DNA of 64,000 nt from Thermodesulfobacteriota bacterium (GCA_034189225.1 JAXHVL010000136.1:6549-70548); one strand, 5' to 3'. Counted from the stretch's first letter, positions 2,433 through 55,345 are shown. Notes: a model not told the origin generated them from the sequence alone. Numbers and translations: made by a program.

Positions 2433-5030
2433 ATGGCTGAAGACCCCATTGACATAAACGCATCCTCCGATACCGGCGGGACCTCTGCCAAAGGAATGGA
2501 TGATACGTCGTTCCCCATCATTGGGATCGGGGCCTCGGCCGGAGGGCTGGAGGCGTTGGAAGCTTTTTTCGGTGCATTGCCGGCCGACAGCGGGATGGCG
2601 TTCGTGGTGATCGTGCATACCTCCCCGGAACACCGGACATTGCTTCCGGAACTGCTTCAAAAAAAAACCCGAATACCGGTACGCCTTCTTGAAGACGGCA
2701 CCGCTGCAACCCCGGACACGGTCTTTTTGCCGCCCTCAGACCGGGATCCGATTATTGAAGCAGGGGTTTTCCGCCTGCAAAAACGCCCGGCCCGCAACGA
2801 AATACACATGCCCGTCGACCTGTTCCTCGGCTACCTGACGAAAGAACGGGGCCGGTTTGCGGCCTGTATCATCCTCTCCGGCACCGGCACCGACGGGACA
2901 CAGGGGCTGCGGCTGATTAAGGAAAACGCCGGCTTGTCCATTGTTCAGGCCCCGGCATCGGCCCGGCACACGGGCATGCCCGAAAGCGCCCTGGACACGG
3001 GCCTGGTGGATTTTGCGATACCGCCGGCGGAAATGCCCGCCTGCCTGATCCGGTATTTTAAACATCCCGCTGCCATGCCCCGCAAGGACAAATCATCCGA
3101 TGCCCCCGACCCGCTGCGTAACATTCTGGTATTACTGGCCAACCAAACCCGTCAGGACTTCACGCTTTATAAGGAAAACACCCTGATCCGACGCATCGAA
3201 CGCCGCATGACCATTACCAACAGCAGGGATGCTTCTGTCTATCTCAATCTGCTCCATCACAACCCGGAAGAAATCCAGTCCCTGATCCAGGATCTGCGTA
3301 TCGGCGTCACCAGTTTTTTCCGGGACCCCGAGGTATTCGACTTCCTAAGGCAGTCGGTGCTTCCGGATATCGTATCCCGGCAGAAAAACGATGCCGTTCG
3401 CGTGTGGGGCCCCGGTTGCGCGACCGGTGAAGAAGCATATTCCCTTGCCATTCTTCTCAAGGAATGCCTGGAAGAAACGAAAATGATCCGGGAACTCCAG
3501 ATATTCGGTACGGACATAGATGCCGGGGCGATTGAACAGGCCCGCCAGGGCACCTATGTGCAGAATATCGCCGCCGATGTGACGACCGACCGGCTCAAAC
3601 GTTTTTTCACCAAGGAAAACAACCGGTACCGAATCAAAAACGATATCCGCGATCAGGTGGTCTTTGCCGAACAAAACATTCTGGAGGACCCGCCCTTTTC
3701 CAGCCTGGACCTGCTGGTGTGCCGCAATCTGCTTATCTATCTCAAGCAGGAAGCCCAGGAGCGGCTCATTCCGCTCTTTCATTACGCCTTGAAAAACGAC
3801 GGCATGTTGCTGCTCGGAAGCGCCGAGAGTATCGGCCGGCACCAGGATCTTTTTGAGCCGGTGAACAAGCAATTCAACATCTACCGGAAAACAAACCAGC
3901 CGGTCCGCCTCCAGGTTCATTTTCCCACGGGATCAAGAAAACTCAACGGCAGTGATGCACCGTCAGAAAAGGAAACAGCCGAGGATCCGGCGCAATCAAA
4001 CGTGAGCCGGGTCACGGAAAAAATACTGATGGCCGAACACACCCCGGCGTGCGTGGTGGTGAACGAAAGCGGCGAAATTATCCACTTTCACGGCCGCACG
4101 GGCAAATTCCTGGAACCCGCCGCCGGGACGCCCACCCTTCAAGTGGCTGACATGGCACGGGAAGGGCTTCGCTTTGCCCTGCTCTCTGCCATGCGCCGGT
4201 GCCGGGAAAAGGGTTCGGAAATTCACGAACGTGATGTCCGGATCAGAACCAACGGGGACGATCACTCTATCAATCTGCGGGTAAAACCGATCACAGCCCC
4301 TTCCTTTAAAAACTGCCAGATGGTTCTCTTTGAAGACCGGTTCGAACCGGGCGAACCGGCGGCGCTGAAAGAAGGCCCGCTAAACAGTGAAACCGACGTC
4401 CAGAAAGTGGAAGAACTGGAACGGGAATTGATGCGTGTGCGCCAGGATTACCGCAGCGCCATGGAAGAGCTCCAGACCTCCAACGAAGAGCTGCGTTCCG
4501 CCAACGAAGAGCTGCATTCATCCAACGAGGAGCTGCAAAGCACGAACGAAGAGCTGGAAAGTTCCCGTGAGGAGCTTCAGTCCCTGAACGAAGAGCTCAA
4601 TACGGTGAATAACGAACTCAACAACAAGATGGCCGAACTGCGGGAGGCCTATAATGCCGTCAACGCGGTGCTCAACAGCACCCGGATCGCCATCGTGTTT
4701 CTGGATACGGACCTCCGGTTGAAACGCTTCACGCCTGAAGCCACCCGCTTATTAAACCTGATCGAATCCGACGTGGGCCGTCCCATGGTTCATATTACCC
4801 ACAACCTGGAACGAAATGACCTGGTGGAAGCCGTCCACGGCGTATTGAAAAGTCTTGCGCCGGTAGACGAGGAAGTGCGTACCCGGGACGGCCACTGGTA
4901 CCGCATGCGCATTATGGTGTACCGGCCGAACGACAAGACGATCGAGGGCGTGGTGATAACCCTTATCAACATCGACACTCAGAAACAGGCAGAACTGGCG
5001 CTTAAACAAAAACCGGAGGGATCGCCATGA
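2433..5030 (+). CDS. CheB methylesterase / CheR methyltransferase fusion protein with coiled coil and C-terminal PAS domain
   Basis: 865 aa. CheB-like N-terminus (IIGIGASAGGLEAL, GTGTDGT). CheR-like SAM-methyltransferase core (VRVWGPGCATGEEAYSLAILL, LLVCRNLLIYL). SNEEL-type heptad coiled coil (SNEELRSANEELHSSNEELQSTNEELESSREELQSLNEEL), then a PAS-like C-terminus. Confidence 0.9.
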   Translation: MAEDPIDINASSDTGGTSAKGMDDTSFPIIGIGASAGGLEALEAFFGALPADSGMAFVVIVHTSPEHRTLLPELLQKKTRIPVRLLEDGTAATPDTVFLPPSDRDPIIEAGVFRLQKRPARNEIHMPVDLFLGYLTKERGRFAACIILSGTGTDGTQGLRLIKENAGLSIVQAPASARHTGMPESALDTGLVDFAIPPAEMPACLIRYFKHPAAMPRKDKSSDAPDPLRNILVLLANQTRQDFTLYKENTLIRRIERRMTITNSRDASVYLNLLHHNPEEIQSLIQDLRIGVTSFFRDPEVFDFLRQSVLPDIVSRQKNDAVRVWGPGCATGEEAYSLAILLKECLEETKMIRELQIFGTDIDAGAIEQARQGTYVQNIAADVTTDRLKRFFTKENNRYRIKNDIRDQVVFAEQNILEDPPFSSLDLLVCRNLLIYLKQEAQERLIPLFHYALKNDGMLLLGSAESIGRHQDLFEPVNKQFNIYRKTNQPVRLQVHFPTGSRKLNGSDAPSEKETAEDPAQSNVSRVTEKILMAEHTPACVVVNESGEIIHFHGRTGKFLEPAAGTPTLQVADMAREGLRFALLSAMRRCREKGSEIHERDVRIRTNGDDHSINLRVKPITAPSFKNCQMVLFEDRFEPGEPAALKEGPLNSETDVQKVEELERELMRVRQDYRSAMEELQTSNEELRSANEELHSSNEELQSTNEELESSREELQSLNEELNTVNNELNNKMAELREAYNAVNAVLNSTRIAIVFLDTDLRLKRFTPEATRLLNLIESDVGRPMVHITHNLERNDLVEAVHGVLKSLAPVDEEVRTRDGHWYRMRIMVYRPNDKTIEGVVITLINIDTQKQAELALKQKPEGSP

Positions 5031-6352: not shown

Positions 6353-7042
6353 ATGTCCCCTGCCCCCTCAAATGCAGCACCGCCACCCCGAAAGACCCGC
6401 ATCATCATCGTCGACGATCACATGGTGGTAGTGGAAGGCATCAGAAACGCCCTTGCCCGGCACCCGGAATTCCAGGTAGTGGACACCGCGGCAGACGGGA
6501 TGGAAGCCTTTAAAAAAGTCAGGGCTGTCAACCCCGACATTGTGATCATGGACATTTCCATGCCCAACCTGAACGGGGTGGACGCCACCCACCACATAAA
6601 AAAGACAAAAAAAAATGTGGCGGTGGTCATCTTCAGCATGTATTCGGACAAGGAATACGTTCTCTCTCTTTTTCGTGAGGGTATTTCCGCTTATGTGCTG
6701 AAAGAAGATTCCCTGGAGGATCTGATAATGGCCCTTCATACAGTCAGCGCCGGCGGCACCTATTTCAGCAGGACCATAAAAGACCATGTGCAGCAACATA
6801 TGGAAGAACTGGAACTGGGCGAACCGGCCATGAAGCGGGGCATCGCGATCTTGAGCGTTCGGGAAAAGGAAGTGTTCCCATTGATTGCGGACGGAAAAAC
6901 CATTAAGGAAATTTCAAAAATCCTGAACATCAGCCCCAAAACCGTGGAATCCCACAAATACAACATCATGGAAAAGCTCGAGGTGCACAGCGTCGCCGAA
7001 TTAACCAAGCTTGCGCTTAAAAAAAAGCTGATTCATTTATGA
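6353..7042 (+). CDS. NarL/FixJ (LuxR-type HTH) response regulator
   Basis: 229 aa. Receiver domain (IIIVDDH...IVIMDISMPNLNG) plus a C-terminal LuxR HTH (LSVREKEVFPLIADGKTIKEISKILNISPKTVESHKYNIMEKL). Confidence 0.92.
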   Translation: MSPAPSNAAPPPRKTRIIIVDDHMVVVEGIRNALARHPEFQVVDTAADGMEAFKKVRAVNPDIVIMDISMPNLNGVDATHHIKKTKKNVAVVIFSMYSDKEYVLSLFREGISAYVLKEDSLEDLIMALHTVSAGGTYFSRTIKDHVQQHMEELELGEPAMKRGIAILSVREKEVFPLIADGKTIKEISKILNISPKTVESHKYNIMEKLEVHSVAELTKLALKKKLIHL

Positions 7043-7043
7043 C

Positions 7044-7250
7044 GGCTTCGTAAAAAGCTTCCAACCCCGCTGCGGTGTTTTTGTAGAAAGTAACGTACGC
7101 GAGATCTGGATTTTTACCGCTATTTGTGCTAAACGACCCATTTTTCTTTCATACTTTTCTTTGCTCGCCCAAAGAAGATGGTCTCGTAAAAAGTCAATTT
7201 TGGGACGGCAAAGTAAAAAGCCGCCCCCTCAGGGGTCGGATTTTTACTTT
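7044..7250. repeat. mosaic intergenic repeat block (GGCTTCGTAAAAAGC boundary hairpins plus the F module in inverted orientation)
   Basis: 7083-7178 matches the reverse complement of 34610-34722 (GTAGAAAGTAACGTA.GCGAG...GCTAAACGACCCATTTTTCTTTCATACTTTTCTTTGCTCGCCCAAAGAA). The boundary motifs GGCTTCGTAAAAAGC (7044-7058) and GGCAAAGTAAAAAG (7207-7220) also occur at 50280 and inside the riboswitch inserts. Confidence 0.6.
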
Positions 7251-7592
7251 CGGAAATAACTGATCAACTTTCAGTGTTCTCCCGATGGACACGCCATGAA
7301 CGATGTTATATTCTAGATACTGTTCTTTAGTGCGTGTTCAGGGTTACGAACCAGCACAGCCGTTCTGCAACAATGATTCCAAAGGCTTGCCACCTGTTTT
7401 TGAATTATTTTTCTTCCTGCTCTCTGTTGTTCTGATAAGATGTCCTGCCGCTGCCGCCTCCGGGCCGTCCGTCTAATCAGACACTGCACCTTATACAAAC
7501 CGCTTTGCTGGCATGAGGCATCGGGGGCGATGTCATGCTGTTTAAAAAGGCGCTTTTTCAGCCCGAAAAATGCAGACACATTGCGGAGACAT

Positions 7593-11078: not shown

Positions 11079-11201
11079 TCATGCCCGCCCTGATGGGATT
11101 TTTTACAAGACCATCTTCGAGGAATTTCAAGACGGAAAGTTGGCCGTCGAGGTGGCCGAGCCCGTGCCTGTGCTGATTATCGAGTAAGCCAAAAGGTGGT
11201 T

Positions 11202-15086: not shown

Positions 15087-15205
15087 TAAAAATCCGACCC
15101 CAAAGGGGCCGGCTTTGGTTACCCCTGTAAGGGGATTGTTTACAGGCTTCGTACGTGAACGTTTTAAATTCGAATTTCTAATGTCCAATTTCTGGTCCTT
15201 TACAT
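15087..15205. repeat. intergenic repeat module A (plus a partial D-like tail)
   Basis: AAAATCCGACCCCAAAGGGGCCGGCTTTGGTTACCCCTGTAAGGGGATTGTTTACAGGCTTCGTACGTGAAC. Copies lie at 32791-32870 and 55036-55095. It contains two small hairpins (CCGACCCC/GGGGCCGG and CCCCT/AGGGG). Confidence 0.65.
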
Positions 15206-15247: not shown

Positions 15248-15856
15248 TTACAGCCTGCGCCTGAGATAATATCCCACCCGGGCGATGCGCTGTTTCAGGT
15301 TGCGGGCCCGGCGGTCCAGGAACCCTTTCATGTAAAGGCCGGGGATGGCCACCATCAACCCGGTCTGGGTGGTAACCAGGGCCTCGGAAATACCGCCGGC
15401 CATGCCCTTGGCATTGCCCGTGCCGAAGATGGCCAGAATATCAAAGGTGCTGATCATGCCCATGACCGTCCCCAGCAGGCCCAGCAGCGGGGCCACCGCC
15501 GCCAGTACGCCTATCACGGCCAGATGATCGTTCAGGGACCGGTTCAGGGTAAAAACGATTTCATCCAGGATGAACCGGTCCAGTGTCTGCTCGTTGCTCC
15601 GCCGGTCCAGAAAACGGGCCACCAGAAGGGATACCGCACCCCTGTGTTGACCGGGGTCGGGCATGCGGTTTTCCCGGACATGGGCCCATGCCGTGGGCGC
15701 ATCCATGTTTTTCCGATACAGCCGCCGGAAAAACAGGATCCGATCGATGATGAGCAGCCACATCACCAGGCTCACCAGTGCCAGCGGAATCATGGCAAAA
15801 CCGCCGGTCCGGAGATAGCTTTCCAGCACCAGGTATTGCGCCCATACAAAATGCAT
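15248..15856 (-). CDS. exbB: MotA/TolQ/ExbB proton-channel protein
   Basis: 202 aa with three TM segments and the conserved C-terminal motif GGISEALVTTQTGLMVAIP. Confidence 0.92.
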   Translation of the reverse strand: MHFVWAQYLVLESYLRTGGFAMIPLALVSLVMWLLIIDRILFFRRLYRKNMDAPTAWAHVRENRMPDPGQHRGAVSLLVARFLDRRSNEQTLDRFILDEIVFTLNRSLNDHLAVIGVLAAVAPLLGLLGTVMGMISTFDILAIFGTGNAKGMAGGISEALVTTQTGLMVAIPGLYMKGFLDRRARNLKQRIARVGYYLRRRL

Positions 15857-17301
15857 TACGACGCCCCCCGGCTCTTGTAGACTATATTCACCAGCGCCAC
15901 CGCCTTTTCCTCCATCTGACCGATGGTCTTGTCCACGGACCGGTTCAGCAGGGTCTGGGCCAGCATGAGCGGAATCGCCACGGACAGGCCCAGCATGGTG
16001 GTGACCAGGGCCTCGGATATGCCGCCGGACATGAGACGGGGATCGCTTGTGCCGTGAAGGGTAATCACGTGAAAGGTTTCAATCATGCCGGTCACTGTCC
16101 CCAGAAGACCCAGGAGCGGGGCAATGGCGGCGAGCATTCCAAGGGTGGACAGAAACCGTTCCATTGACGGGATCTCCCGCAGGATTGCCTCCTGGAGCGC
16201 ATTTTCCATCTCCTCCCGGGCCATGTGGCAGCAATCAAGCCCTGCTTTCAAGACACGGGCCACGGGTTTGCGGTCATGTTCGACGCAGGCGAGGGTGCAG
16301 TCATTCCACCTGCTGTCCGCAGCCAGGGCCTCGATGCGGCGGATCAGACCGTCAGGGTTGAGGCGCTTTTGCAGCAGAAAGATGACCCGCTCGGTAACGA
16401 TCACCAGCCCCACCCCCAGGATTGCCAGGATAGGCCAGATGAGCAGTCCGCCCTTGGGCACCATCTCCCAGATATTCAGTGCATGGGTGAGCTGCCGAAG
16501 GGCCGCGCCGCGGGTAATATCCATGGGTACCCGATCCGCCTCCCCGTCCATGTAGCGGTCAATCTGCCCCTGCATCCGGCCGGAAGGCAGGCGGGAAAGC
16601 GCATACAGCTTGTTCCCGTCGGCTGAATAATTCAGAAACCCGGTCTCGTCGCCGTGGCGGTAGGCGGCGGTAAACGGCCCCAGCATCAGAATATCCGTCG
16701 AAACCGCCTTGCCGGCCCGGTCGATCATGGTGCCCTCTTCCACGGTCACGGCCCCGGTCTTCTGCATCTGATCGAACAGGGCATCGGCCATGCCGCGCAC
16801 TTCGGTCATGCCGGGAAATTTTGATTGTTCGGCCACCGACGCCAGGAACTCGGGATGCCCCCCGCCCACGGCCGTCTGTAGATTGCCGGCAATCAATGCG
16901 TCAATATCCTTGGCATTGATCCGGATCACCCCAACCAATTCCTTGACCATGCCCTGTTTTTCGGAAAGGGTCTCTGAGAGCGTGCTCTCTTCGGCCGACA
17001 GTTGCGACTCTGTCCGGGTCAGCGTCTGCACCGTTTTCTTTAAAGACCGGTTTTGCGTTTCTATTTCAGCGATGGCATTTTCCAGTTTTTCCCGATCCGC
17101 TGCGATCCGCGCCCGGCTTTCGGCGGCCGCTTTTTCCGCGGCGGCCTTTTCCGCGGCGATTTTCTCCTGCAGGGCCTGCCGTTGCTGGCGGGCTTCCCTG
17201 GACAGCGCCCGCATATCGGCGGCCGTCGACACCCAAGGCACCAACACCAGGATCAAGCAGACCGGCAACAACCATAATATCCGGTGAATGGTCCGTGTCA
17301 T
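15856..17301 (-). CDS. long MotA/TolQ/ExbB family protein with large N-terminal periplasmic coiled-coil domain (TtpC-like)
   Basis: The start is reset to MTRTIHRILWLLPVCLILVLV (ATG 17301), an ATGA overlap with the upstream stop. C-terminal ExbB motif GGISEALVTTMLGLSVAIP. TAATG overlap with exbB. Confidence 0.88.
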   Translation of the reverse strand: MTRTIHRILWLLPVCLILVLVPWVSTAADMRALSREARQQRQALQEKIAAEKAAAEKAAAESRARIAADREKLENAIAEIETQNRSLKKTVQTLTRTESQLSAEESTLSETLSEKQGMVKELVGVIRINAKDIDALIAGNLQTAVGGGHPEFLASVAEQSKFPGMTEVRGMADALFDQMQKTGAVTVEEGTMIDRAGKAVSTDILMLGPFTAAYRHGDETGFLNYSADGNKLYALSRLPSGRMQGQIDRYMDGEADRVPMDITRGAALRQLTHALNIWEMVPKGGLLIWPILAILGVGLVIVTERVIFLLQKRLNPDGLIRRIEALAADSRWNDCTLACVEHDRKPVARVLKAGLDCCHMAREEMENALQEAILREIPSMERFLSTLGMLAAIAPLLGLLGTVTGMIETFHVITLHGTSDPRLMSGGISEALVTTMLGLSVAIPLMLAQTLLNRSVDKTIGQMEEKAVALVNIVYKSRGAS

Positions 17302-18092
17302 GGGCTTACGATCCTCCCTAATGGCAGCGTCAGCAGTTCGGCGGTCCGCCGCTTGGCAGCGATGTCCACCGCGGCCTTTATTTCCGGCAGATGAACGCCC
17401 GAAAGGGGCTGCCATTGCTTTTCGGCAACATTATAAAACCCGCATTGGGCGCGATCGAGGGTGAGATAAAACAGGTTGAGGCGCCCCAGCCGGAAGATGT
17501 TCACCAGTCGTTCCCCTGCCTCGATGGCGATGGTGTCCTGGTAAACTTCCGTGGTGAAGCCGTATTCGGCCTCGACCAAGAGCGCCTCAATGAGCCGACG
17601 GTATTTTTCGCTGACCGGAGCATCCGGATCTTCCACCAGTTCTTCCATTTTTCGAATGCGCTTTGCCCGCTCATCCGGAAGAAACGGCAGGTCGGCACGA
17701 ACCCGACCCTTCAGCCGGTCCAGCAGTTCATCCAGGAACGGCCGTATCTGCTCCGATATCTGCCGGATATCCGCCAGCTGGTCTTTTTTTTCCGCCAGAC
17801 GCAGCTTTGTTGCCTTGACCTCATTTTCCAGGCCCCGTTTCCGCTGTTTCAGGGCTTTCTGCTCGGCCTCAAGCTTTTCCAGCCGGGCCAACTGCTCAGC
17901 TTTTTCCTGCCGCCAGGCCTCCTGCTGCTGCTGGGTATTCTGGCGAATATCAATGGCCTCCTTTACCGGCCGGTCGATTCGCTCCTGAGCATAAACCGGC
18001 AATAAAAGGCCGCTGACAACCGCCAGCATCACCACGGCCAGCCCCCCTGCTCTGAAACCACCCCTGGTTAAACGCTGATGCATTGTCGTCAT
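17298..18092 (-). CDS. DUF3450 family periplasmic protein (TtpB-like first gene of TonB2-type clusters)
   Basis: The start is reset to MTTMHQRL (ATG 18092; GGAG lies 7 nt upstream). Signal or anchor segment, coiled coil, then the conserved LPFLPDERAKRI...EKYRRLIEALLVEAEYG...FRLGRLNLFYLTLD region. The 5' 438 nt of the track ORF are the riboswitch, not coding. Confidence 0.85.
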   Translation of the reverse strand: MTTMHQRLTRGGFRAGGLAVVMLAVVSGLLLPVYAQERIDRPVKEAIDIRQNTQQQQEAWRQEKAEQLARLEKLEAEQKALKQRKRGLENEVKATKLRLAEKKDQLADIRQISEQIRPFLDELLDRLKGRVRADLPFLPDERAKRIRKMEELVEDPDAPVSEKYRRLIEALLVEAEYGFTTEVYQDTIAIEAGERLVNIFRLGRLNLFYLTLDRAQCGFYNVAEKQWQPLSGVHLPEIKAAVDIAAKRRTAELLTLPLGRIVSP

Positions 18093-18112: not shown

Positions 18113-18507
18113 CAAAAAAAAACCCGGATCGATTCAATCGATCCGGGATTCCCTGATTTATCCACAGATGATCCATGGGTACGGTACCGTTCCGGCAACC
18201 GTCCCATCTGTTCAGGCAGGTCTTCTGACTTTCGGATCTGTCTACTGACCGCGCCTTCCCGGTCCTGATGGCTTCGTAAAACGCCCAATAGCTGCGTTGC
18301 GCTGCATCTCTCGTCATGTCACGTACCGCCAAGTACGCTCCATTCCTCGATATGCAGCGACGCCTTGCTCTTGAACTTTTTACTTTGCCATCAGAAGAAC
18401 GCTTCGTAAAACGTCCGTCTACCTTCTGACCAGTGGCATGCTGCGGCCTTCGTCCCCGATTACAGCGGCGGGCCCGTCCCCGAATTTCACGGGGTTCCCT
18501 GTTAGGC
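18113..18507 (-). promoter_or_regulatory. cobalamin (B12) riboswitch with intrinsic-terminator expression platform, long variant carrying an internal repeat insert
   Basis: The minus strand reads AACAGGGAACCCCGTGAAATTCGGGGACGGGCCCGCCGCTGTAATCGGGGACGAA...GCCACTGG...[insert]...GGGAAGGCGCGGTCAGTAG...AGTCAGAAGACCTGCC (B12 box). It ends in CCCGGATCGATTGAATCGATCCGGG followed by a T-run (18113-18147). Confidence 0.9.
18271..18413. repeat. ~130-nt self-complementary repeat element embedded in the riboswitch, bounded by a perfect 13-nt direct repeat
   Basis: GCTTCGTAAAACG occurs at 18271-18283 and again at 18401-18413. The interior matches the free-standing copy at 50280-50400 (CCCAATAGC.GCGTTGCG.TGCATCTCTCGTCATGTCACGTAC...GTACGCTCCATTCCTCGA.ATGCA...GCCTTGCTCTTGA.CTTTTTACTTTGCC). 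Confidence 0.75.
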
Positions 18508-18564
18508 TTTAACGCACCTGAACATTTCACTTTTCTGAATGATCTGATGAAATAATGCAGTCAC

Positions 18565-18594
18565 ATTCTAGACGAAATTGACGTGTCATGTCAA
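18565..18594 (-). promoter_or_regulatory. candidate sigma70-type promoter of the riboswitch/TonB2 operon
   Basis: On the minus strand, TTGACA (18594-18589), an 18-nt spacer, then TAGAAT (18570-18565), about 50 nt upstream of the aptamer. Confidence 0.5.
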
Positions 18595-18657: not shown

Positions 18658-18686
18658 TTGACAGGGAATGTTTGGTTGTATAGTCT
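18658..18686 (+). promoter_or_regulatory. candidate sigma70-type promoter of the plus-strand riboswitch/cbiK operon
   Basis: TTGACA (18658-18663), a 17-nt spacer, then TAGTCT. Alternatively TATAGT with a 15-nt spacer. Confidence 0.4.
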
Positions 18687-18699
18687 ACAGAATCTGTTC

Positions 18700-18954
18700 G
18701 GGTACGCTTATGCGTATAATAGGGAATCTCGTTAAAATCGGGAACGGGCCCGCCGCTGTAATCGGGGACGAACACCGCAGTTTGTCACTACCTCCGGAAG
18801 GATGTGGGAAGGCGCGGTCAGTAGGAAGATCCGGGAGTCAGAAGACCTGCCTGAACAACCCGTGGTTATGTTCACGGCCTTGAAATAACCACAGAAAACT
18901 GGATTAAAAACGGAATCCCCGGTTGGCGATAATACGCTGGCCGGGGATTTTTTT
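18700..18954 (+). promoter_or_regulatory. cobalamin (B12) riboswitch, compact variant, with intrinsic terminator
   Basis: AATAGGGAATCTCGTTAAAATCGGGAACGGGCCCGCCGCTGTAATCGGGGACGAA...GTCACTACCTCCGGAAGGATGTGGGAAGGCGCGGTCAGTAGGAAGATCCGGGAGTCAGAAGACCTGCCTGAACAA. The terminator is AATCCCCGG...CCGGGGATT followed by a T-run (18914-18954). Confidence 0.9.
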
Positions 18955-30748: not shown

Positions 30749-30789
30749 AATCGGCAATCTCCTTGCTTTATTACACTCAAAAGGACTTC

Positions 30790-31183
30790 AAAAAAAATCC
30801 CGGATCGATTCAATCGATCCGGGATTCCCTGATTTATCCACAGATGATCCATGGGTACAGTACCGTTCCGGCAACCGTCCCATCTGTTCAGGCAGGTCTT
30901 CTGACTTTCGGATCTGTCTACTGACCGCGCCTTCCCGGTCCTGATGGCTTCGTAAAACGCCCAATAGCTGCGTTGCGCTGCATCTCTCGTCATGTCACGT
31001 ACCGCCAAGTACGCTCCATTCCTCGATATGCAGCGACGCCTTGCTCTTGAACTTTTTACTTTGCCATCAGAAGAACGCTTCGCAAAAAGTCCGTCTACCT
31101 TCTGACCAGTGGCATGCTGCGGCCTTCGTCCCCGATTACAGCGGCGGGTCCGTCCCCGAATTTCACGGGGTTCCCTGTTAGGC
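30790..31183 (-). promoter_or_regulatory. cobalamin (B12) riboswitch, long variant, near-identical copy of 18113-18507
   Basis: It has the same aptamer, insert, B12 box and terminator hairpin as 18113-18507. By eye I count about 5 substitutions over ~390 nt. Homology starts at GCCTAACAGGG and ends at the terminator T-run. Confidence 0.9.
30947..31089. repeat. embedded ~130-nt repeat element (second copy inside a riboswitch)
   Basis: GCTTCGTAAAACG at 30947-30959 and the degenerate copy GCTTCGCAAAAAG at 31077-31089. The interior is identical to 18284-18400. Confidence 0.75.
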
Positions 31184-31212
31184 GCATCCTCGCGCACCCG
31201 AACCAGGTTACG

Positions 31213-31241
31213 AGAATATACAATTAAACCGCTGCTGTCAA
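31213..31241 (-). promoter_or_regulatory. candidate sigma70-type promoter for the cbiC-operon riboswitch
   Basis: On the minus strand, TTGACA (31241-31236), a 17-nt spacer, then TATTCT (31218-31213). Confidence 0.45.
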
Positions 31242-32791: not shown

Positions 32792-33130
32792 AAAACCGCC
32801 CCAAAGAGGTCGGCTTTGGTTACCCTTATAAGGGGATTGTTTATAGGCCTCGTACGTGACCATATAAAGTTCGAAATACGAAGGCACATAGTGCTTGCAC
32901 TCATCCTTCGTGTTCTTCGTGAACTTCGTGGTTCATTTGATTTGATGTTTATTACCACGAAGCGCACGAAGGGCACGAAGACATATGCATCGAATAGATA
33001 TCCCGAAACACGCCGATATCTGCTTTGATCATTGAAACATTTGGTATTCGAATTTGTTTCGGGTTTCGAAATTCGAATTTCATGCTTAAAACCATTACTG
33101 ACCTGGCCCCGAAGGCCAGTCTTTTTCAGT
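32791..33130. repeat. mosaic intergenic repeat block: module A, CACGAAG phased hairpin (32905-32980), module D/E
   Basis: It is colinear with 55036-55280. The order is A (CCGCCCCAAAGAGGTCGGCTTTGGTTACCCTTATAAGGGG), then hairpin CTTCGTGTTCTTCGTGAACTTCGTGGTT...TACCACGAAGCGCACGAAGGGCACGAAG, then TGATCATTGAAACATTTGGTATTCGAATTTGTTTCGGGTTTCGAAATTCGAATTTC, then GACCTGGCCCCGAAGGCCAG. Confidence 0.7.
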
Positions 33131-34429: not shown

Positions 34430-34863
34430 ATCACCGGTTCCCACGCAGGAGAGGCTGTGTCGCAATATGCCATTCCGGCCAATGCAGCGAAGGAACTTCT
34501 GGCGGTCTAAAGACCGCCGCTACACCGGCTGTGACAATTGTCCCATATTTTGGTAAACACCACAGCCTGTGTAGCGGAAGCCTTCAGGCTTCCGCAAAAG
34601 CCGAACATAGATATCTTTTTCATACTTTTCTTTGGGCGAGCAAAGAAAAGTATGAAAGAAAAATGGGTCGTTTAGCACAATAGGGATAAAAAAGCCAATC
34701 CTCGCATACGTTACTTTCTGCTATCTGTTTTGGTCATTGGAGCATTTGATATTCGGATTTGTTTCGAATTTCTAATTTCAAATTTCGTGCTTTGCTCCTT
34801 ACCGGCATAGCCTTTTATCGTTGACCTGGCCCAGAGGACCAGGTTTTATTGACTGAATAAAAT
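34430..34863. repeat. mosaic intergenic repeat block between imuB and dnaE2 (GGTTCCCACGCAGGAG motif, module G, module F palindrome, module D/E)
   Basis: G lies at 34497-34593. F has the 16-bp perfect-stem palindrome TTCATACTTTTCTTTGggcgagCAAAGAAAAGTATGAA (about 34621-34660). D/E lies at 34725-34863 and matches 43676-43805. Confidence 0.7.
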
Positions 34864-43488: not shown

Positions 43489-43565
43489 TGGTGGCGATGC
43501 AGGGATTTGAACCCCGGACGCTACGGATATGAGCCGTATGCTCTAACCAACTGAGCTACATCGCC
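43489..43565 (-). tRNA. tRNA with anticodon CAT (elongator Met, or Ile2 if lysidine-modified)
   Basis: On the minus strand, GGCGATGTAGCTCAGTTGGTTAGAGCATACGGCTCATATCCGTAGCGTCCGGGGTTCAAATCCCTGCATCGCCACCA. It folds as a cloverleaf with a paired 1:72 position, so it is not an initiator. CCA is encoded. Confidence 0.92.
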
Positions 43566-43675
43566 ACATGCACCCCATGAAACATAAACTCATTCAAGTA
43601 CCAGCTTCCCTGCCGTAAGTCAAGTGTTTTTATCGAATTTTTCAATTTTCAAAACAACTGATTGCAAGGGTGTGT

Positions 43676-43805
43676 GTTTTGATCATTGGAGCATTTGATA
43701 TTCGGATTTGTTTCAAATTTCGAATTTCGCGCTTTGCTCCATACCGGCATAGCCTTTTATCGCTGACCTGGCCCAGCAGACCATGTTTTATTGAATGAAT
43801 AAATT
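43676..43805. repeat. intergenic repeat module D/E
   Basis: TTTTGATCATTGGAGCATTTGATATTCGGATTTGTTTCAAATTTCGAATTTCGCGCTTTGCTCCATACCGGCATAGCCTTTTATCGCTGACCTGGCCCAGCAGACCATGTTTTATTGAATGAATAAA. It is near-identical to 34725-34863. Confidence 0.7.
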
Positions 43806-44129: not shown

Positions 44130-45974
44130 TTACCGTGCCGGTACGGATTCCGATACCGCCACCTCGTATTCCACGAGGTCCGGCGGCAGCTCGGGGATCA
44201 CAATCATGAACGGCACGTTGGCGCCGGGCTGAACCCCCACATTCTGCTGGTCCATGCCGGCGCGATTGGCCAGGCGGGCCCGGATACTGCCGATATCATT
44301 TTCCGACAGTTCTTCAATTGTCAAAATGTTCCCACAATAGGCCGAAGTGGTGCGTGCCAGATTATGCCCCCGCGAGTACAGGTTTGCCGTCACCTCGATG
44401 AAACTCTTGGGCTCGGATGATTTATTGGTTGCGGTGCCGCTGATAATAAAAAGCTTGCCGGAAATATCGTTCTTTACAAAATCGCTCTGAATACTGCTTT
44501 GGACCACGCTGACATCGGAACCTGAAACAGCCGGCGGGCCCTGTTCGGAACCTGCTATCAATTCTCCGATATAGGGTATTTTTTCAAGGGAAGGCAGGTT
44601 CACCCCCATCCTTCCGGCCAGTATATACCCGCCCACCGCGAGGGCCGCCAGTACAATCAGAACAATAACAATCGAGAGAAAAACCTTTCCAATCTTCTTC
44701 TTTGCCTTCTTTTTCTTATCCTTGCCGGCCTTCGCCGCTTTCTTCTTTTTGGCCTTCTTGTCTTTACCCGCGGCGGTTTCCGCTTCTTCACCGGCTTCAG
44801 CGGCCTCGTCTTCTTTCGAATCGAAGTCCACCTCGATGTCCTCGGCGTCTTCATCCTCGTCCCCGGCCAGCATCTTTTCTATATCCGAAAAATCTTCATC
44901 CTCGGCACCGCCGAGCTCCAGGTCCTCATCCGGGGTTTCATCACTTTCATCATCGGAAAGCTCCAGTTCAAGGTCCTCTGACTCTTCATCATCATCTTCT
45001 TCCGGCTCCAGCAGTTCCATCTCGATGGTCTGCTCCAGATCGGAAAGATCGATTTCCTGCTGCTCCACGCCGTCCTCATCCCCGGCATCGCCAAAATCAA
45101 GCCCATCGGCCGACTCTTCCACGGTATCGGTAAAAGATTCGTCATCGTCGGACTCCAGCAGGCTTTCAACCTCAGAAAAATCAAGCTCATCGTCTTCCTC
45201 ATCATCAAGGCTCAGCTCGAGTTCGTTACTGCCGCCGTCACTTTCCGCCGCTTCATCATCATCCAGGGAGAGCTCCAGATCATCGTCGTCTTCATCCAGG
45301 CTCAGCTCAAAATCATCCTCATCTGTGGCGGGGCCTTCCTGCCCATCGTCGTCGCCATCATCCAGGGATAGTTCCAGATCATCAACACCCGCGTCATCAT
45401 CTTCGTCCAAGGATAATTCCAAATCCTCACCGCCCGGCGCTTCGTCTTCGCCCTCTTCGTCTTCATCCAGGGATAACGCCATATCCTCGTCATCGAAGCT
45501 CAACTCCGGTTCCTCGCCTTCAACGCCGCCGGATTCGTCTTGGTCCGACTCGATTTCTATATCCAGATCATCAGCGCCTTCGGCCGCTTCCCGGTTTTCA
45601 TCCTCGTCAGTTTCATCCTCATCAATAGACAAATCAAGTTCATCCTCGCTCAAATCAAGCGACAGATCATCATTCAGTTCATCTTCGAAATCATCTTCTG
45701 AATCTGCTCCTGAATCTGGCCCGCCTTCCGGCTCACTTTCATCTTCTGCGTCTTGCACTCCAAAGTCCGGTGTTTCCCCGGCTGCCTTGTCTTCTTCATG
45801 TTCACCACCCCCGGTATCCGGCTCAGGCTCAGGTTCGGCCGCCGGTTCCTCAACGGGGGGAAACGCCAGAAAAATATGCTTGCACTTGGAGCACCTGACC
45901 TTGGAACCGCTGGGCTTTAGAAGGGTTTCGTCGAGTCTAAAGCTGATACCGCATTTTTCGCAGGTAATGATCAT
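44130..45974 (-). CDS. MJ0042-type zinc-ribbon protein with a ~370-aa hyper-acidic repeat region, Lys-rich patch, TM helix and C-terminal DUF3426-like domain
   Basis: 614 aa. N-terminus MIITCEKCGISFRLDETLLKPSGSKVRCSKCKHIF (CxxC...CxxC). A D/E-rich region carries at least six (L/F)ELSLD(D/E) units. KDKKAKKKKAAKAGKDKKKKAKKKIGK precedes the TM helix VFLSIVIVLIVLAALAVGGYILA. The C-terminal beta-rich domain is typical of DUF3426. Confidence 0.85.
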   Translation of the reverse strand: MIITCEKCGISFRLDETLLKPSGSKVRCSKCKHIFLAFPPVEEPAAEPEPEPDTGGGEHEEDKAAGETPDFGVQDAEDESEPEGGPDSGADSEDDFEDELNDDLSLDLSEDELDLSIDEDETDEDENREAAEGADDLDIEIESDQDESGGVEGEEPELSFDDEDMALSLDEDEEGEDEAPGGEDLELSLDEDDDAGVDDLELSLDDGDDDGQEGPATDEDDFELSLDEDDDDLELSLDDDEAAESDGGSNELELSLDDEEDDELDFSEVESLLESDDDESFTDTVEESADGLDFGDAGDEDGVEQQEIDLSDLEQTIEMELLEPEEDDDEESEDLELELSDDESDETPDEDLELGGAEDEDFSDIEKMLAGDEDEDAEDIEVDFDSKEDEAAEAGEEAETAAGKDKKAKKKKAAKAGKDKKKKAKKKIGKVFLSIVIVLIVLAALAVGGYILAGRMGVNLPSLEKIPYIGELIAGSEQGPPAVSGSDVSVVQSSIQSDFVKNDISGKLFIISGTATNKSSEPKSFIEVTANLYSRGHNLARTTSAYCGNILTIEELSENDIGSIRARLANRAGMDQQNVGVQPGANVPFMIVIPELPPDLVEYEVAVSESVPAR

Positions 45975-48928: not shown

Positions 48929-49131
48929 CCGTAATATGGCGAAACCGATTAATTGCAGCGAACATATTATTAAGGAGTGTCCGTCCGGGAATTAGATATT
49001 TTGGTCGAGTTCAAGGAAGGCGAAAATTTTAACCGGAGGAATACTTAGCGTATTTTGAGGATTAAAATTTGAGCCTGACGCAGAAATCGGGCAAAATAGC
49101 AATTCATGGATGGGCACTAAGGAGATGGCAT

Positions 49132-50277
49132 ATGGACATATTACACTACACCGATGCCCATGAGGAATTCCGGCACCGCCTGCGCACCTTCTGCGAAAAC
49201 GAAATCACACCGTTTGTTGATGAGTGGGAAAAAGATCATATTGTTCCAAAGCATGCCTGGAAGCGAATGGGGGAAGAAGGCTTTCTCTGCACTGCCGTTT
49301 CAGAAACATACGGCGGCCAGGGAAAGGATTTCCTCTATTCCGTGATCGTGGCCGAAGAGCTGGCCAGAACAAACCACACCGGCCTGGCTGCCCCTCTTCA
49401 CAGCGACATCGTGGTGCCGTACATCGAGTCCTACGGCTCTGAAGCCATTAAAAAGCGGTTTCTCCCGGGCTGCGTTTCCGGCGATACCATTACAGCGGTG
49501 GCAATGACCGAGCCGGATGCGGGCAGCGACCTGGCCGCCATGACCACCACCGCGGTGGAAGACGGCGACGAAGTGGAGATCAACGGCTCAAAAACCTTTA
49601 TCACAAACGGCATCAATGCGGACCTTGTGGTAGTGGCGGCGGTTGACCCATCGGTGGACAACCCCCACCAGGCCGTCTCCCTCTATCTTGTCAAAGATGG
49701 TACGCCGGGGTTTGAACGGGGCCGGCGGCTGGAAAAAATGGGATTTCACAGCCAGGACACGGCCGAGCTGTTTTTCAATAAATGCCGAATTCCCGTGGAA
49801 AACCGGCTGGGAGAAAAAAACATGGGCTTTATCATGCTCATGGAAAAACTTCAGCAGGAACGTCTGATCTGTGCGGTCATGGCCCAGTTCGCCGTGGAAC
49901 TGATCGTGGAAAAGGTCACCGAATATTTAAAGACGGCAAAGGACGCGGTGGGCAAGCCGCTGTCCAAGTATCAGGCCACAAACTTCGCCCTGGTGGAAAT
50001 GGCGACCGAGGCCAAAATCGGCCGGACCTTCATGGAAAAGCTCGTTGCCGAACATATGGAAGGCAGGGATGTGGTGATGGAGACCTGCATGGCCAAGTAC
50101 TGGCACACCGACCTTACCCAGACCGTTGCCAACCGAGCCCTGGACCTGATCGGCGAAGAGGCGGCGGCCGAACGGAGCCTTATCCTTCGGGGCTGGCGGG
50201 ACCTGCGGGTGCTGCCGATATTTGCCGGCACCAACGAGATCATGAAGATGGTGGTGGGCCGCATGCTGCAACTGTGA
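49132..50277 (+). CDS. acyl-CoA dehydrogenase family protein
   Basis: The start is MDILHYTDAHEEFR (AAGGAG upstream of ATG 49132). ACAD motifs AVAMTEPDAGSDL and RDLRVLPIFAGTNEIM are present. Confidence 0.9.
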   Translation: MDILHYTDAHEEFRHRLRTFCENEITPFVDEWEKDHIVPKHAWKRMGEEGFLCTAVSETYGGQGKDFLYSVIVAEELARTNHTGLAAPLHSDIVVPYIESYGSEAIKKRFLPGCVSGDTITAVAMTEPDAGSDLAAMTTTAVEDGDEVEINGSKTFITNGINADLVVVAAVDPSVDNPHQAVSLYLVKDGTPGFERGRRLEKMGFHSQDTAELFFNKCRIPVENRLGEKNMGFIMLMEKLQQERLICAVMAQFAVELIVEKVTEYLKTAKDAVGKPLSKYQATNFALVEMATEAKIGRTFMEKLVAEHMEGRDVVMETCMAKYWHTDLTQTVANRALDLIGEEAAAERSLILRGWRDLRVLPIFAGTNEIMKMVVGRMLQL

Positions 50278-50279
50278 GG

Positions 50280-50400
50280 GCTTCGTAAAAAGCCCAATAG
50301 CGGCGTTGCGGTGCATCTCTCGTCATGTCACGTACACCCCTGTACGCTCCATTCCTCGAGATGCACCGGCGCCTTGCTCTTGACCTTTTTACTTTGCCCT
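50280..50400. repeat. free-standing copy of the ~130-nt element found inside the two long riboswitches
   Basis: GGGCTTCGTAAAAAGCCCAATAGCGGCGTTGCGGTGCATCTCTCGTCATGTCACGTACACCCCTGTACGCTCCATTCCTCGAGATGCACCGGCGCCTTGCTCTTGACCTTTTTACTTTGCC. Confidence 0.75.
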
Positions 50401-50444
50401 CAATAATTTTTTTGAGGCTTTTAGCTTCTCAATGGAGATTGATA

Positions 50445-55035: not shown

Positions 55036-55280
55036 ACATCCGACCCCAGAGGGGCCGGCTTTGGTTACCCCTGTAAGGGGGTTGTTTATAGTCTGAACTC
55101 ACCCTTCGTGAACTTCGTGGTTCAATTGTCTGGCGTTGATTACCACGAAGAGCACGAAGGTCACGAAGATAAATGCATCGCATTGATGCCCCGGAACACT
55201 CCGGTATCTGTTTTGATCATTGGAACATTTGGTATTCGGATTTGTTTCGAGTTTCGAATTTCAAATTTAGTGTTTTTCGC
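55036..55280. repeat. mosaic intergenic repeat block: module A, CACGAAG phased hairpin (55102-55168), module D
   Basis: It has the same module order as 32791-33130. The hairpin is CCTTCGTGAACTTCGTGGTTcaattgtctggcgttgatTACCACGAAGAGCACGAAGGTCACGAAG. Module D is TTTTGATCATTGGAACATTTGGTATTCGGATTTGTTTCGAGTTTCGAATTTC. Confidence 0.7.
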
Positions 55281-55345
55281 ATTGTCTTGACAAAGCCCCT
55301 ACCACTCCTGGCCCGGCTCTAAGATTTTCAAATTGGAAGAACAAA

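Follow-up and report, generated by a model that had tools for sequence, protein, structure and literature searches.

Cobalamin riboswitches of the adenosylcobalamin type (Cbl-I, RF00174) carry a P7–P11 "P6 extension", which folds back so that adenosines of J11/10 reach the ligand pocket (PMC7367189). The distal hairpin of this extension is naturally variable in length. We analyzed a stretch of 64,000 nt from a Thermodesulfobacteriota bacterium (GCA_034189225.1 JAXHVL010000136.1:6549-70548; hereafter the window), in which the cobalamin riboswitches agree with this class in their full-length match to the family model, in all conserved motifs and the B12 box, and in having a terminator as expression platform with B12 transport or biosynthesis genes downstream. 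Two of them differ from it in the distal hairpin, where an insert is located: the loop is 161 nt long, compared with a natural range of 4 to ~30 nt for the same hairpin in the 41 metagenomic riboswitches examined, and a mobile element, not a lineage-specific stem, makes up the extra sequence.

The inserted element resembles Correia/NEMIS of Neisseria, ERIC/IRU of enterobacteria and RUP of pneumococcus, which are 120–160 nt long with terminal inverted repeats and short target-site duplications, and which occur as many dispersed intergenic copies, in both orientations and often within transcription units, with the capacity to form a long imperfect hairpin. Wilson and Sharp are said to have described, in 2006, compensatory changes in ERIC. 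These families have no sequence similarity to the window element; the Correia duplication is TA, whereas that of the window element's family is 6–7 bp and AT-rich, and, unlike Correia, ERIC and RUP, the element has a right end with a doubled terminal-repeat motif. Correia, ERIC and RUP are known as co-transcribed RNA hairpins; nuclease processing, an IHF site or promoter activity of the window element would be hypothetical. REP and BIME sequences are also intergenic, palindromic and multicopy, but REPs are 20–40 nt long, have no target-site duplication and are RAYT-associated, whereas the window element is 126–151 nt long with terminal repeats and 6–7-bp duplications. Membership in REP/BIME was rejected on length and duplications; of the "MITE/REP-like" insertion in the original prediction, the MITE-like reading is supported.

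Inserted sequence that is tolerated or reused within a structured RNA is also found in the intervening sequences of rRNA helices and in mobile attenuators, where a terminator brought in by an insertion sequence itself turns into the regulator (Naville and Gautheret 2010, PMC2965389). In contrast to mobile attenuators, the regulator described here pre-exists and the element would be a passenger in one of its loops; the rRNA intervening sequences are excised by RNase III, whereas no excision is known for the window insert. Both components of the locus are of known kinds, a MITE and a cobalamin riboswitch with a distal hairpin known to vary. No precedent for a MITE or other repeat within an otherwise intact riboswitch aptamer was found in the literature searched, including a 2024 review of prokaryotic MITEs.

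Three matches to RF00174 were found in the window, each spanning model positions 1–189 without truncation (Table 1). The scores of the two long riboswitches, 96.1 and 100.1 bits, are well over the gathering threshold of 31.5 bits, and the covariance-model alignment contains the B12 box AGUCAGAAGACCUGCC and all conserved positions for both. The third riboswitch is compact and, as expected from the earlier reading of the sequence, has only a short hairpin at the insertion position (ACCUCC-GGAA-GGAUGU) and no insert. Its identity to the flanks of the long riboswitches is 85–92%, and all three appear to be paralogues. The compact riboswitch is divergent from long 1, with cbiK and then a FecCD-type permease gene following it; the spacer common to the two is ~150 nt long and contains two promoter-like sites. 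Scores near that of the compact paralogue, full coverage of the model, a promoter-like site, a terminator and B12-related genes downstream all make the long riboswitches look intact, and we infer that they still bind ligand and regulate.

Table 1. Coordinates of the riboswitches, element copies and associated features, counted from the first nucleotide of the window
Feature	Position	Strand	Remarks
Compact cobalamin riboswitch	18683-18868	+	RF00174, 101.7 bits; leader of cbiK-fecCD
Cobalamin riboswitch, long 1	18198-18536	-	RF00174, 96.1 bits; leader of DUF3450-ExbB (TonB-system) operon
Cobalamin riboswitch, long 2	30874-31216	-	RF00174, 100.1 bits; leader of cbiC-cbiD-cbiE/T
161-nt insertion, long 1	18265-18425	-	cmscan; length and position confirmed by string search
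161-nt insertion, long 2	30941-31101	-	cmscan; right 13-mer with 2 mismatches (31077-31089)
126-nt MITE hairpin body, GATGGCTTCGTAAAACG...CTTTTTACTTTGCCATC	18267-18392		left 13-mer (18271-18283) inside its terminal repeat
27-nt outer segment, AGAAGAACGCTTCGTAAAACGTCCGTC	18393-18419		holds right 13-mer (18401-18413)
Free-standing hairpin copy	50276-50401	+	between acyl-CoA dehydrogenase gene and family III CoA-transferase gene
Intrinsic terminator (expression platform), long 1	18113-18147	-	terminator scan; 11-bp stem (18147-18123), then U9 run
Promoter-like site TTGACA-18-TAGAAT, upstream of long 1	18565-18594	-	11/12 matches; consensus match only
DUF3450 ORF	17298-18092	-	downstream of long 1
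MotA/ExbB ORF	15856-17415	-	downstream of long 1

The alignment of each long riboswitch to the covariance model is broken once, by 161 nt between GCCACUGGUCAG and GACCGGGAAGGC. The original prediction of extra sequence at this position in both riboswitches was correct, with a somewhat smaller size than the ~170 nt proposed. The insertion site is the terminal hairpin loop of the peripheral P6 extension (model positions ~119–124), which is closed by a 4-bp stem, GGUC/GACC. When the long leader was folded with and without the insert, the fold of the remaining leader was the same, and thermodynamic folding gave an expected 1.27 base pairs across the insert boundary. The minimum free energy of 18250–18430(-) as RNA was -78 kcal/mol (z = -8.4 relative to shuffled controls). 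Alignment to the RF00174 model and folding with and without the insert agree with the proposal that the extra sequence is limited to a stem-loop at the periphery; in the covariance-model alignment it occupies a loop and does not run across the essential aptamer helices, the outcome that had been named as contrary to that proposal. The insert is confined to this one loop and folds as an insulated domain. In the numbering of the T. tengcongensis structure, its hairpin would correspond to P11/L11, and the GGGAAGG motif, located 4 bp from the insert, to the J11/10 adenosine region of Cbl-I. At this distance from the GGGAAGG adenosines, the insert could influence ligand affinity or folding.

Outside the riboswitches, the 126-nt hairpin recurs where a free-standing element had been expected (50280–50400). 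The free copy (50275–50402) is 90% identical to the riboswitch copies across 128 nt, and the differences between them are compensatory, as in GCGCTGCAT/ATGCAGCG against GCGGTGCAT/ATGCACCG, and GATGGC/GCCATC against GAGGGC/GCCCTC. The self-complementarity noted in the element amounts to a strong imperfect hairpin; relative to shuffled controls, one strand of the free copy has a z-score of -6.5 and the other of -9.6. Both genes that flank the free copy are on the plus strand. The stop codon of the acyl-CoA dehydrogenase ORF (49069–50277), TGA at 50275–50277, overlaps the element end, with the T contributed by the flank and the GA by GAGGGC. The same arrangement is found at ORF 6353–7042, where the T of the TGA at 7040–7042 is flank and the GA comes from GACGGC. 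In both cases, the element may have inserted into the 3' end of the ORF and thereby redefined it.

Counting copies genome-wide and inspecting their flanks had been suggested as a check on the mobile nature of the element, and both gave positive results in relatives. A scan with the core 20-mer, using one genome per species, identified at least 49 loci. Among the matches listed, 40 loci with 42 copies belonged to a single Thermodesulfobacteriota MAG (JAXHTY01), which therefore contains at least 42 copies, and the remaining loci listed were from Desulfosudaceae and Desulfobacterales MAGs. The main form in JAXHTY01 is 151 nt long (GACGGCTTCGTAAAAAGTC...GACTTTTTACGAGACCATC) and has terminal inverted repeats of ~19 nt, GACGGCTTCGTAAAAAGTC and GATGGTCTCGTAAAAAGTC, the window counterparts of which are GATGGCTTCGTAAAACG... 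and ...CTTTTTACTTTGCCATC. The terminal inverted repeat consensus, GA(C/T)GGCTTCGTAAAA(A/C)G, is present in the free copy as well as in over 50 copies from other genomes. Both the 126-nt hairpin of the window and the 151-nt form of the relatives are small and non-coding, with no ORF of note. Among the 24 copies in relatives that have both ends, 15 are bordered by identical 6-bp sequences and five more by identical 7-bp sequences, compared with a mean of 0.7 matches and a maximum of four when flank pairs were permuted; the real flanks are 83% A+T, and the duplications directly border GAYGG...CCRTC. None of the three window copies has matching flanks; those of the riboswitch insert read GGTCCT and TACCTT. 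A degenerate AGGUA on either side of the riboswitch insert is a possible duplication, but this was judged to be over-reading. The element is a MITE by the usual criteria of size, terminal repeats, duplications in relatives, dispersed copies and empty orthologous sites.

Searches of Rfam 15 with both strands of the free copy and of a MAG36 copy returned only chance-level matches to microRNA-type hairpins (E ≥ 0.13, with scores well under the gathering thresholds), no match to the core 20-mer was found in the viral contigs scanned, and an exact-sequence search of the literature with four element motifs also found no match. The element represents a previously undescribed MITE family of Desulfosudaceae-type bacteria with a covarying hairpin. 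An autonomous partner was sought as inverted terminal-repeat pairs 0.6–4 kb apart, and no such pair enclosed a transposase in the ~750 kb examined. Intervals bounded by terminal repeats were rejected as candidate insertion sequences because they contained housekeeping genes (e.g. IMP dehydrogenase, phosphoglycerate kinase), and terminal-repeat matches at 11115 and 52669 in the window were rejected as chance matches within coding sequence. The ISDol1 group in ISfinder, first described from Desulfococcus oleovorans, produces 6–7-bp duplications and is a possible lead to the transposase.

Two observations concern individual family members. One copy that is near-identical to the main JAXHTY01 family lies on a 2.3-kb contig labelled Candidatus Kuenenia (L043, CAZITB010000246.1); its presence in an anammox planctomycete bin reflects either a binning contaminant or recent horizontal transfer. 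In two other copies (L019 5931 and L038 322), a second, G+C-rich hairpin (GGGGCGAACACAAGGTTCGCC...) is nested in the apical loop, so that the apical loop of the element is itself tolerant of insertion.

To assess conservation of the hairpin, 12 distinct copies were aligned, drawn from the window and from four further genomes. In the resulting 39-pair hairpin, 95.3% of cells are paired, compared with 30–42% in slid controls, and 11 pairs are altered on both sides, compared with 3.9 ± 1.4 in shuffled alignments, none of which equalled the observed value in 500 attempts. All four Watson-Crick pairs occur at one position. The hairpin is under selection and is kept by compensatory changes. Because an exact core 20-mer was used to pick the copies, part of the apparent invariance of the core stems from the search, and diverged members found via their ends do vary there. 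The G.U pairs of the alignment are not clearly biased toward either strand, and family copies can point either way with respect to neighboring genes; the constraint may therefore act on the DNA, or on transposition, rather than on RNA.

The original prediction described both long riboswitches as carrying the element, which suggested two insertion events, but comparison of the leaders points to one. Aligned in the RNA sense, long 1 and long 2 have 4–5 differences over ~390 nt, from GCCTAACAGGG through the insert to the U-run of the terminator, and their terminators are the same (window 18113–18536 against 30789–31216), a duplication that the original prediction had not mentioned. The two are unrelated in their 5' P1/P2 strands, in their promoters and in the genes downstream. 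Near-identity that stops short of the 5' strands and downstream genes argues against a second transposition; it indicates a single insertion, followed by copying of a ~390-nt leader block by duplication or gene conversion between paralogous riboswitches. The element thus spread between paralogous leaders by recombination instead of transposition. Given the 85–92% identity of the compact paralogue to the flanks of the long riboswitches, B12 leaders in this genome appear to be still recombining. In three other samples, the contigs encoding an identical DUF3450 protein all start at window position 18152, inside the duplicated block, as expected where assemblers break at this repeat. An assembly artefact was rejected as the source of the insert because the two copies have identical junctions, a relative from an independent sample (L097, below) has the same 3' junction, and other assemblies break exactly at the duplicated leader.

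Orthologous leaders were compared in relatives to look for the empty site. The riboswitch-DUF3450-ExbB-ExbD-TonB loci of the nearest available relatives have compact hairpins. The DUF3450 leader is empty in L091 (MAG36, the MAG with at least 42 element copies; 66% protein identity), in L092/L093 (68%), where GGUC-AUUGGUUGA-GACU has the closing stem as in the window, and in L056 (65%); the cbiC leader is empty and compact in L100 (76%). The empty site anticipated by the original prediction is therefore present in four relatives. Riboswitches from the metagenome scan with near-consensus flanks were also considered as empty sites, but these were mostly unrelated and only L056 was orthologous; L059/L060/L086, which are 85% identical, were rejected because their downstream genes are unrelated. 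The CbiC relatives L098, L099, L101, L102 and L103 either had no riboswitch directly upstream or were on contigs that were too short.

The closest cbiC relative, L097, comes from a separate sequencing run and encodes a CbiC that is 84% identical; its leader is 81–84% identical to that of the window and has the same terminator type. Here the loop is 40 nt long (TCATCATAAGATGGAGCGTCTTTTTACGAAGCCATCAGTA). It has 17 nt in common with the window insert (TTTTACGAAGCCATCAG) at an identical 3' junction, and it keeps 9 nt of the element core (ATGGAGCGT). The L097 loop is an internally deleted remnant of the insertion seen in the window, which places the insertion before the split of the two lineages. 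After insertion, the conserved aptamer residues and the B12 box were kept in both lineages, whereas the full hairpin is intact in the window lineage and decayed in the L097 lineage. The comparison provides three stages of a mobile element within a functional RNA: empty, full and eroded.

The MITE was inserted once and later multiplied by leader copying, and we consider it likely that it is a tolerated passenger in a functional riboswitch. A non-autonomous MITE, from a family that is abundant in Desulfosudaceae-type genomes, hit once the DNA encoding the terminal loop of the P6 extension in an adenosylcobalamin-type riboswitch. Being a long imperfect palindrome, the transcribed element would fold on itself into a ~60-bp hairpin with a small side hairpin, closed by GGUC/GACC, and would not disturb the aptamer helices, the B12 box or the terminator, so that the riboswitch keeps working. 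Later, ~390 nt comprising most of the aptamer, the insert and the terminator were copied ahead of a second B12 operon, with the result that two leaders carry the element. The insert would have no role of its own. This locus would then be a natural example of a large riboswitch that tolerates a bulky 161-nt insert 4 bp from pocket-shaping residues. An insertion-tolerance map of this kind could be of use in riboswitch engineering, and for annotation it illustrates that long insertions can break or mask covariance-model matches.

A different reading is that the hairpin has been co-opted as an added control, in which cutting by RNase III or RNase E, or protein binding, supplies a second input or alters leader stability, in analogy to Correia and ERIC elements of other bacteria. 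We regard this as unlikely, but it has more in its favor than the other alternatives. Compensatory changes maintain the hairpin across genomes, both window leaders retain the full-length element, and processing of co-transcribed MITEs by RNase III and RNase E is known (review PMC10969869). The strand transcribed in the riboswitches is also the better RNA folder (-65.6 compared with -47.8 kcal/mol). Around half of the copies in relatives lie in 5' leaders: in a crude count made without a control, 24 of 44 family copies (L001-L049) were within ~120 nt upstream of a Shine-Dalgarno sequence and the start of an ORF of at least 100 amino acids, 14 of them by the left end and 11 by the right. The family is frequent in 5' leaders, whichever way it points, and a preference for AT-rich target sites is the probable reason. 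The occurrence of copies in both orientations with no clear G.U strand bias means that structural selection may operate at the level of DNA or transposition. Any transcription of the free copy would run in the opposite sense. Co-option is further weakened by L097, which let the element decay to 40 nt while the riboswitch was kept, and by the orthologous leaders of four relatives that work without it. A more specific form, which we rate slightly lower again, is that the MITE extends P11 into a long duplex arm, with cleavage by RNase III or binding of a host protein via conserved asymmetric internal loops, adding a second input or a change in stability to the TonB-uptake and corrin-biosynthesis operons. 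If true, it would be the first case in nature of a mobile element remodelling a riboswitch. An open question would be resolved here only if the hairpin proves to be regulatory; otherwise, this is a fairly ordinary tolerated insertion.

Improbable to a greater degree is that the insertion inactivated its hosts, leaving pseudo-riboswitches in which the P6 extension is undocked and the operons are constitutively on or off. The insert is just 4 bp from the conserved GGGAAGG, the adenosines of which shape the Cbl-I ligand pocket (PMC7367189), and the short closing stem faces a local competitor in the minimum free energy fold. Set against this proximity, the conserved positions and the B12 box are intact, the scores equal that of the compact paralogue, and the affected loop is naturally variable. 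The insertion also predates the split from L097, with the aptamer consensus preserved in both lineages, and the insert-bearing leader was propagated, together with its terminator, to a second B12 operon.

The 13-nt direct repeat was the feature that first drew attention to the insert. The 13-mer GCTTCGTAAAACG is present at 18271–18283, 18401–18413 and 30947–30959, with a 2-mismatch copy at 31077–31089 in the other leader, all as originally described. With up to two mismatches allowed, it occurs six times in the window compared with 0.96 expected, and no shuffled sequence reached six. The left 13-mer is within the terminal inverted repeat in essentially every copy of the element, the free copy included. 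The right 13-mer is held by a 27-nt segment that stands where the 151-nt relatives have their outer right terminal repeat, with the motif direct rather than inverted, and that forms a small separate hairpin in the RNA fold. Neither the 27-nt segment nor the right 13-mer was found in the free copy, in other family copies or in the L097 remnant, and the only outside matches to the right 13-mer are the left terminal repeats of other elements. The earlier proposal that the repeat resembles a target-site duplication is thus contradicted, and the two 13-mers are two terminal-repeat motifs; the competing suggestion made alongside it, that the 13-mer is part of the element consensus at all copies, applies to the left one and not to the right one, which may be a rearranged end of the element or the stump of a neighboring element. 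The notion that the repeats are a target-site duplication, or that the extra sequence is a native, lineage-specific riboswitch expansion from which the free copy was derived, draws on a perfect 13-nt repeat (15 of 16 nt matching when extended to 16 nt) spaced 130 nt apart and bracketing most of the hairpin, but is scarcely credible given that every copy, the free one and over 50 elsewhere among them, has the left 13-mer in its terminal repeat, that the right 13-mer is missing from all other copies, that family duplications are 6–7 bp and AT-rich, that only two of the 54 copies examined are in a riboswitch and that the orthologous leaders are empty.

Several other repeats were seen in the window. 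A cluster of other small elements with the MITE terminal-repeat motif is located at 7040–7260. Within it, GACGGCTTCGTAAAAAG at 7041 opens a different interior, which is also present in L011, and GATGGTCTCGTAAAAAGTCAATTTTGGGACGGCAAAGTAAAAAG at 7177 reproduces exactly, in inverted orientation, the right end found in the 151-nt relatives, from which it follows that the full doubled right end exists elsewhere in the window's genome. Relatives, too, hold small elements with MITE ends but other interiors. Further interspersed repeats are found at 33012–33095, 34717–34800, 43666–43749 and 55200–55283, and additional sets at 15098/32799/55044 and 7145/34616/56810. These interspersed families are 53–141 nt long, some are palindromic, and they often adjoin each other and lie near a tRNA gene (43492–43565); small repeats are abundant in the window's genome. 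Seven units of a 21-nt in-frame tandem repeat of the AACGAAGAGCTGC type at 4457–4603 and acidic-codon repeats on a 40-nt scale at 45067–45494 are probably repetitive protein-coding segments.
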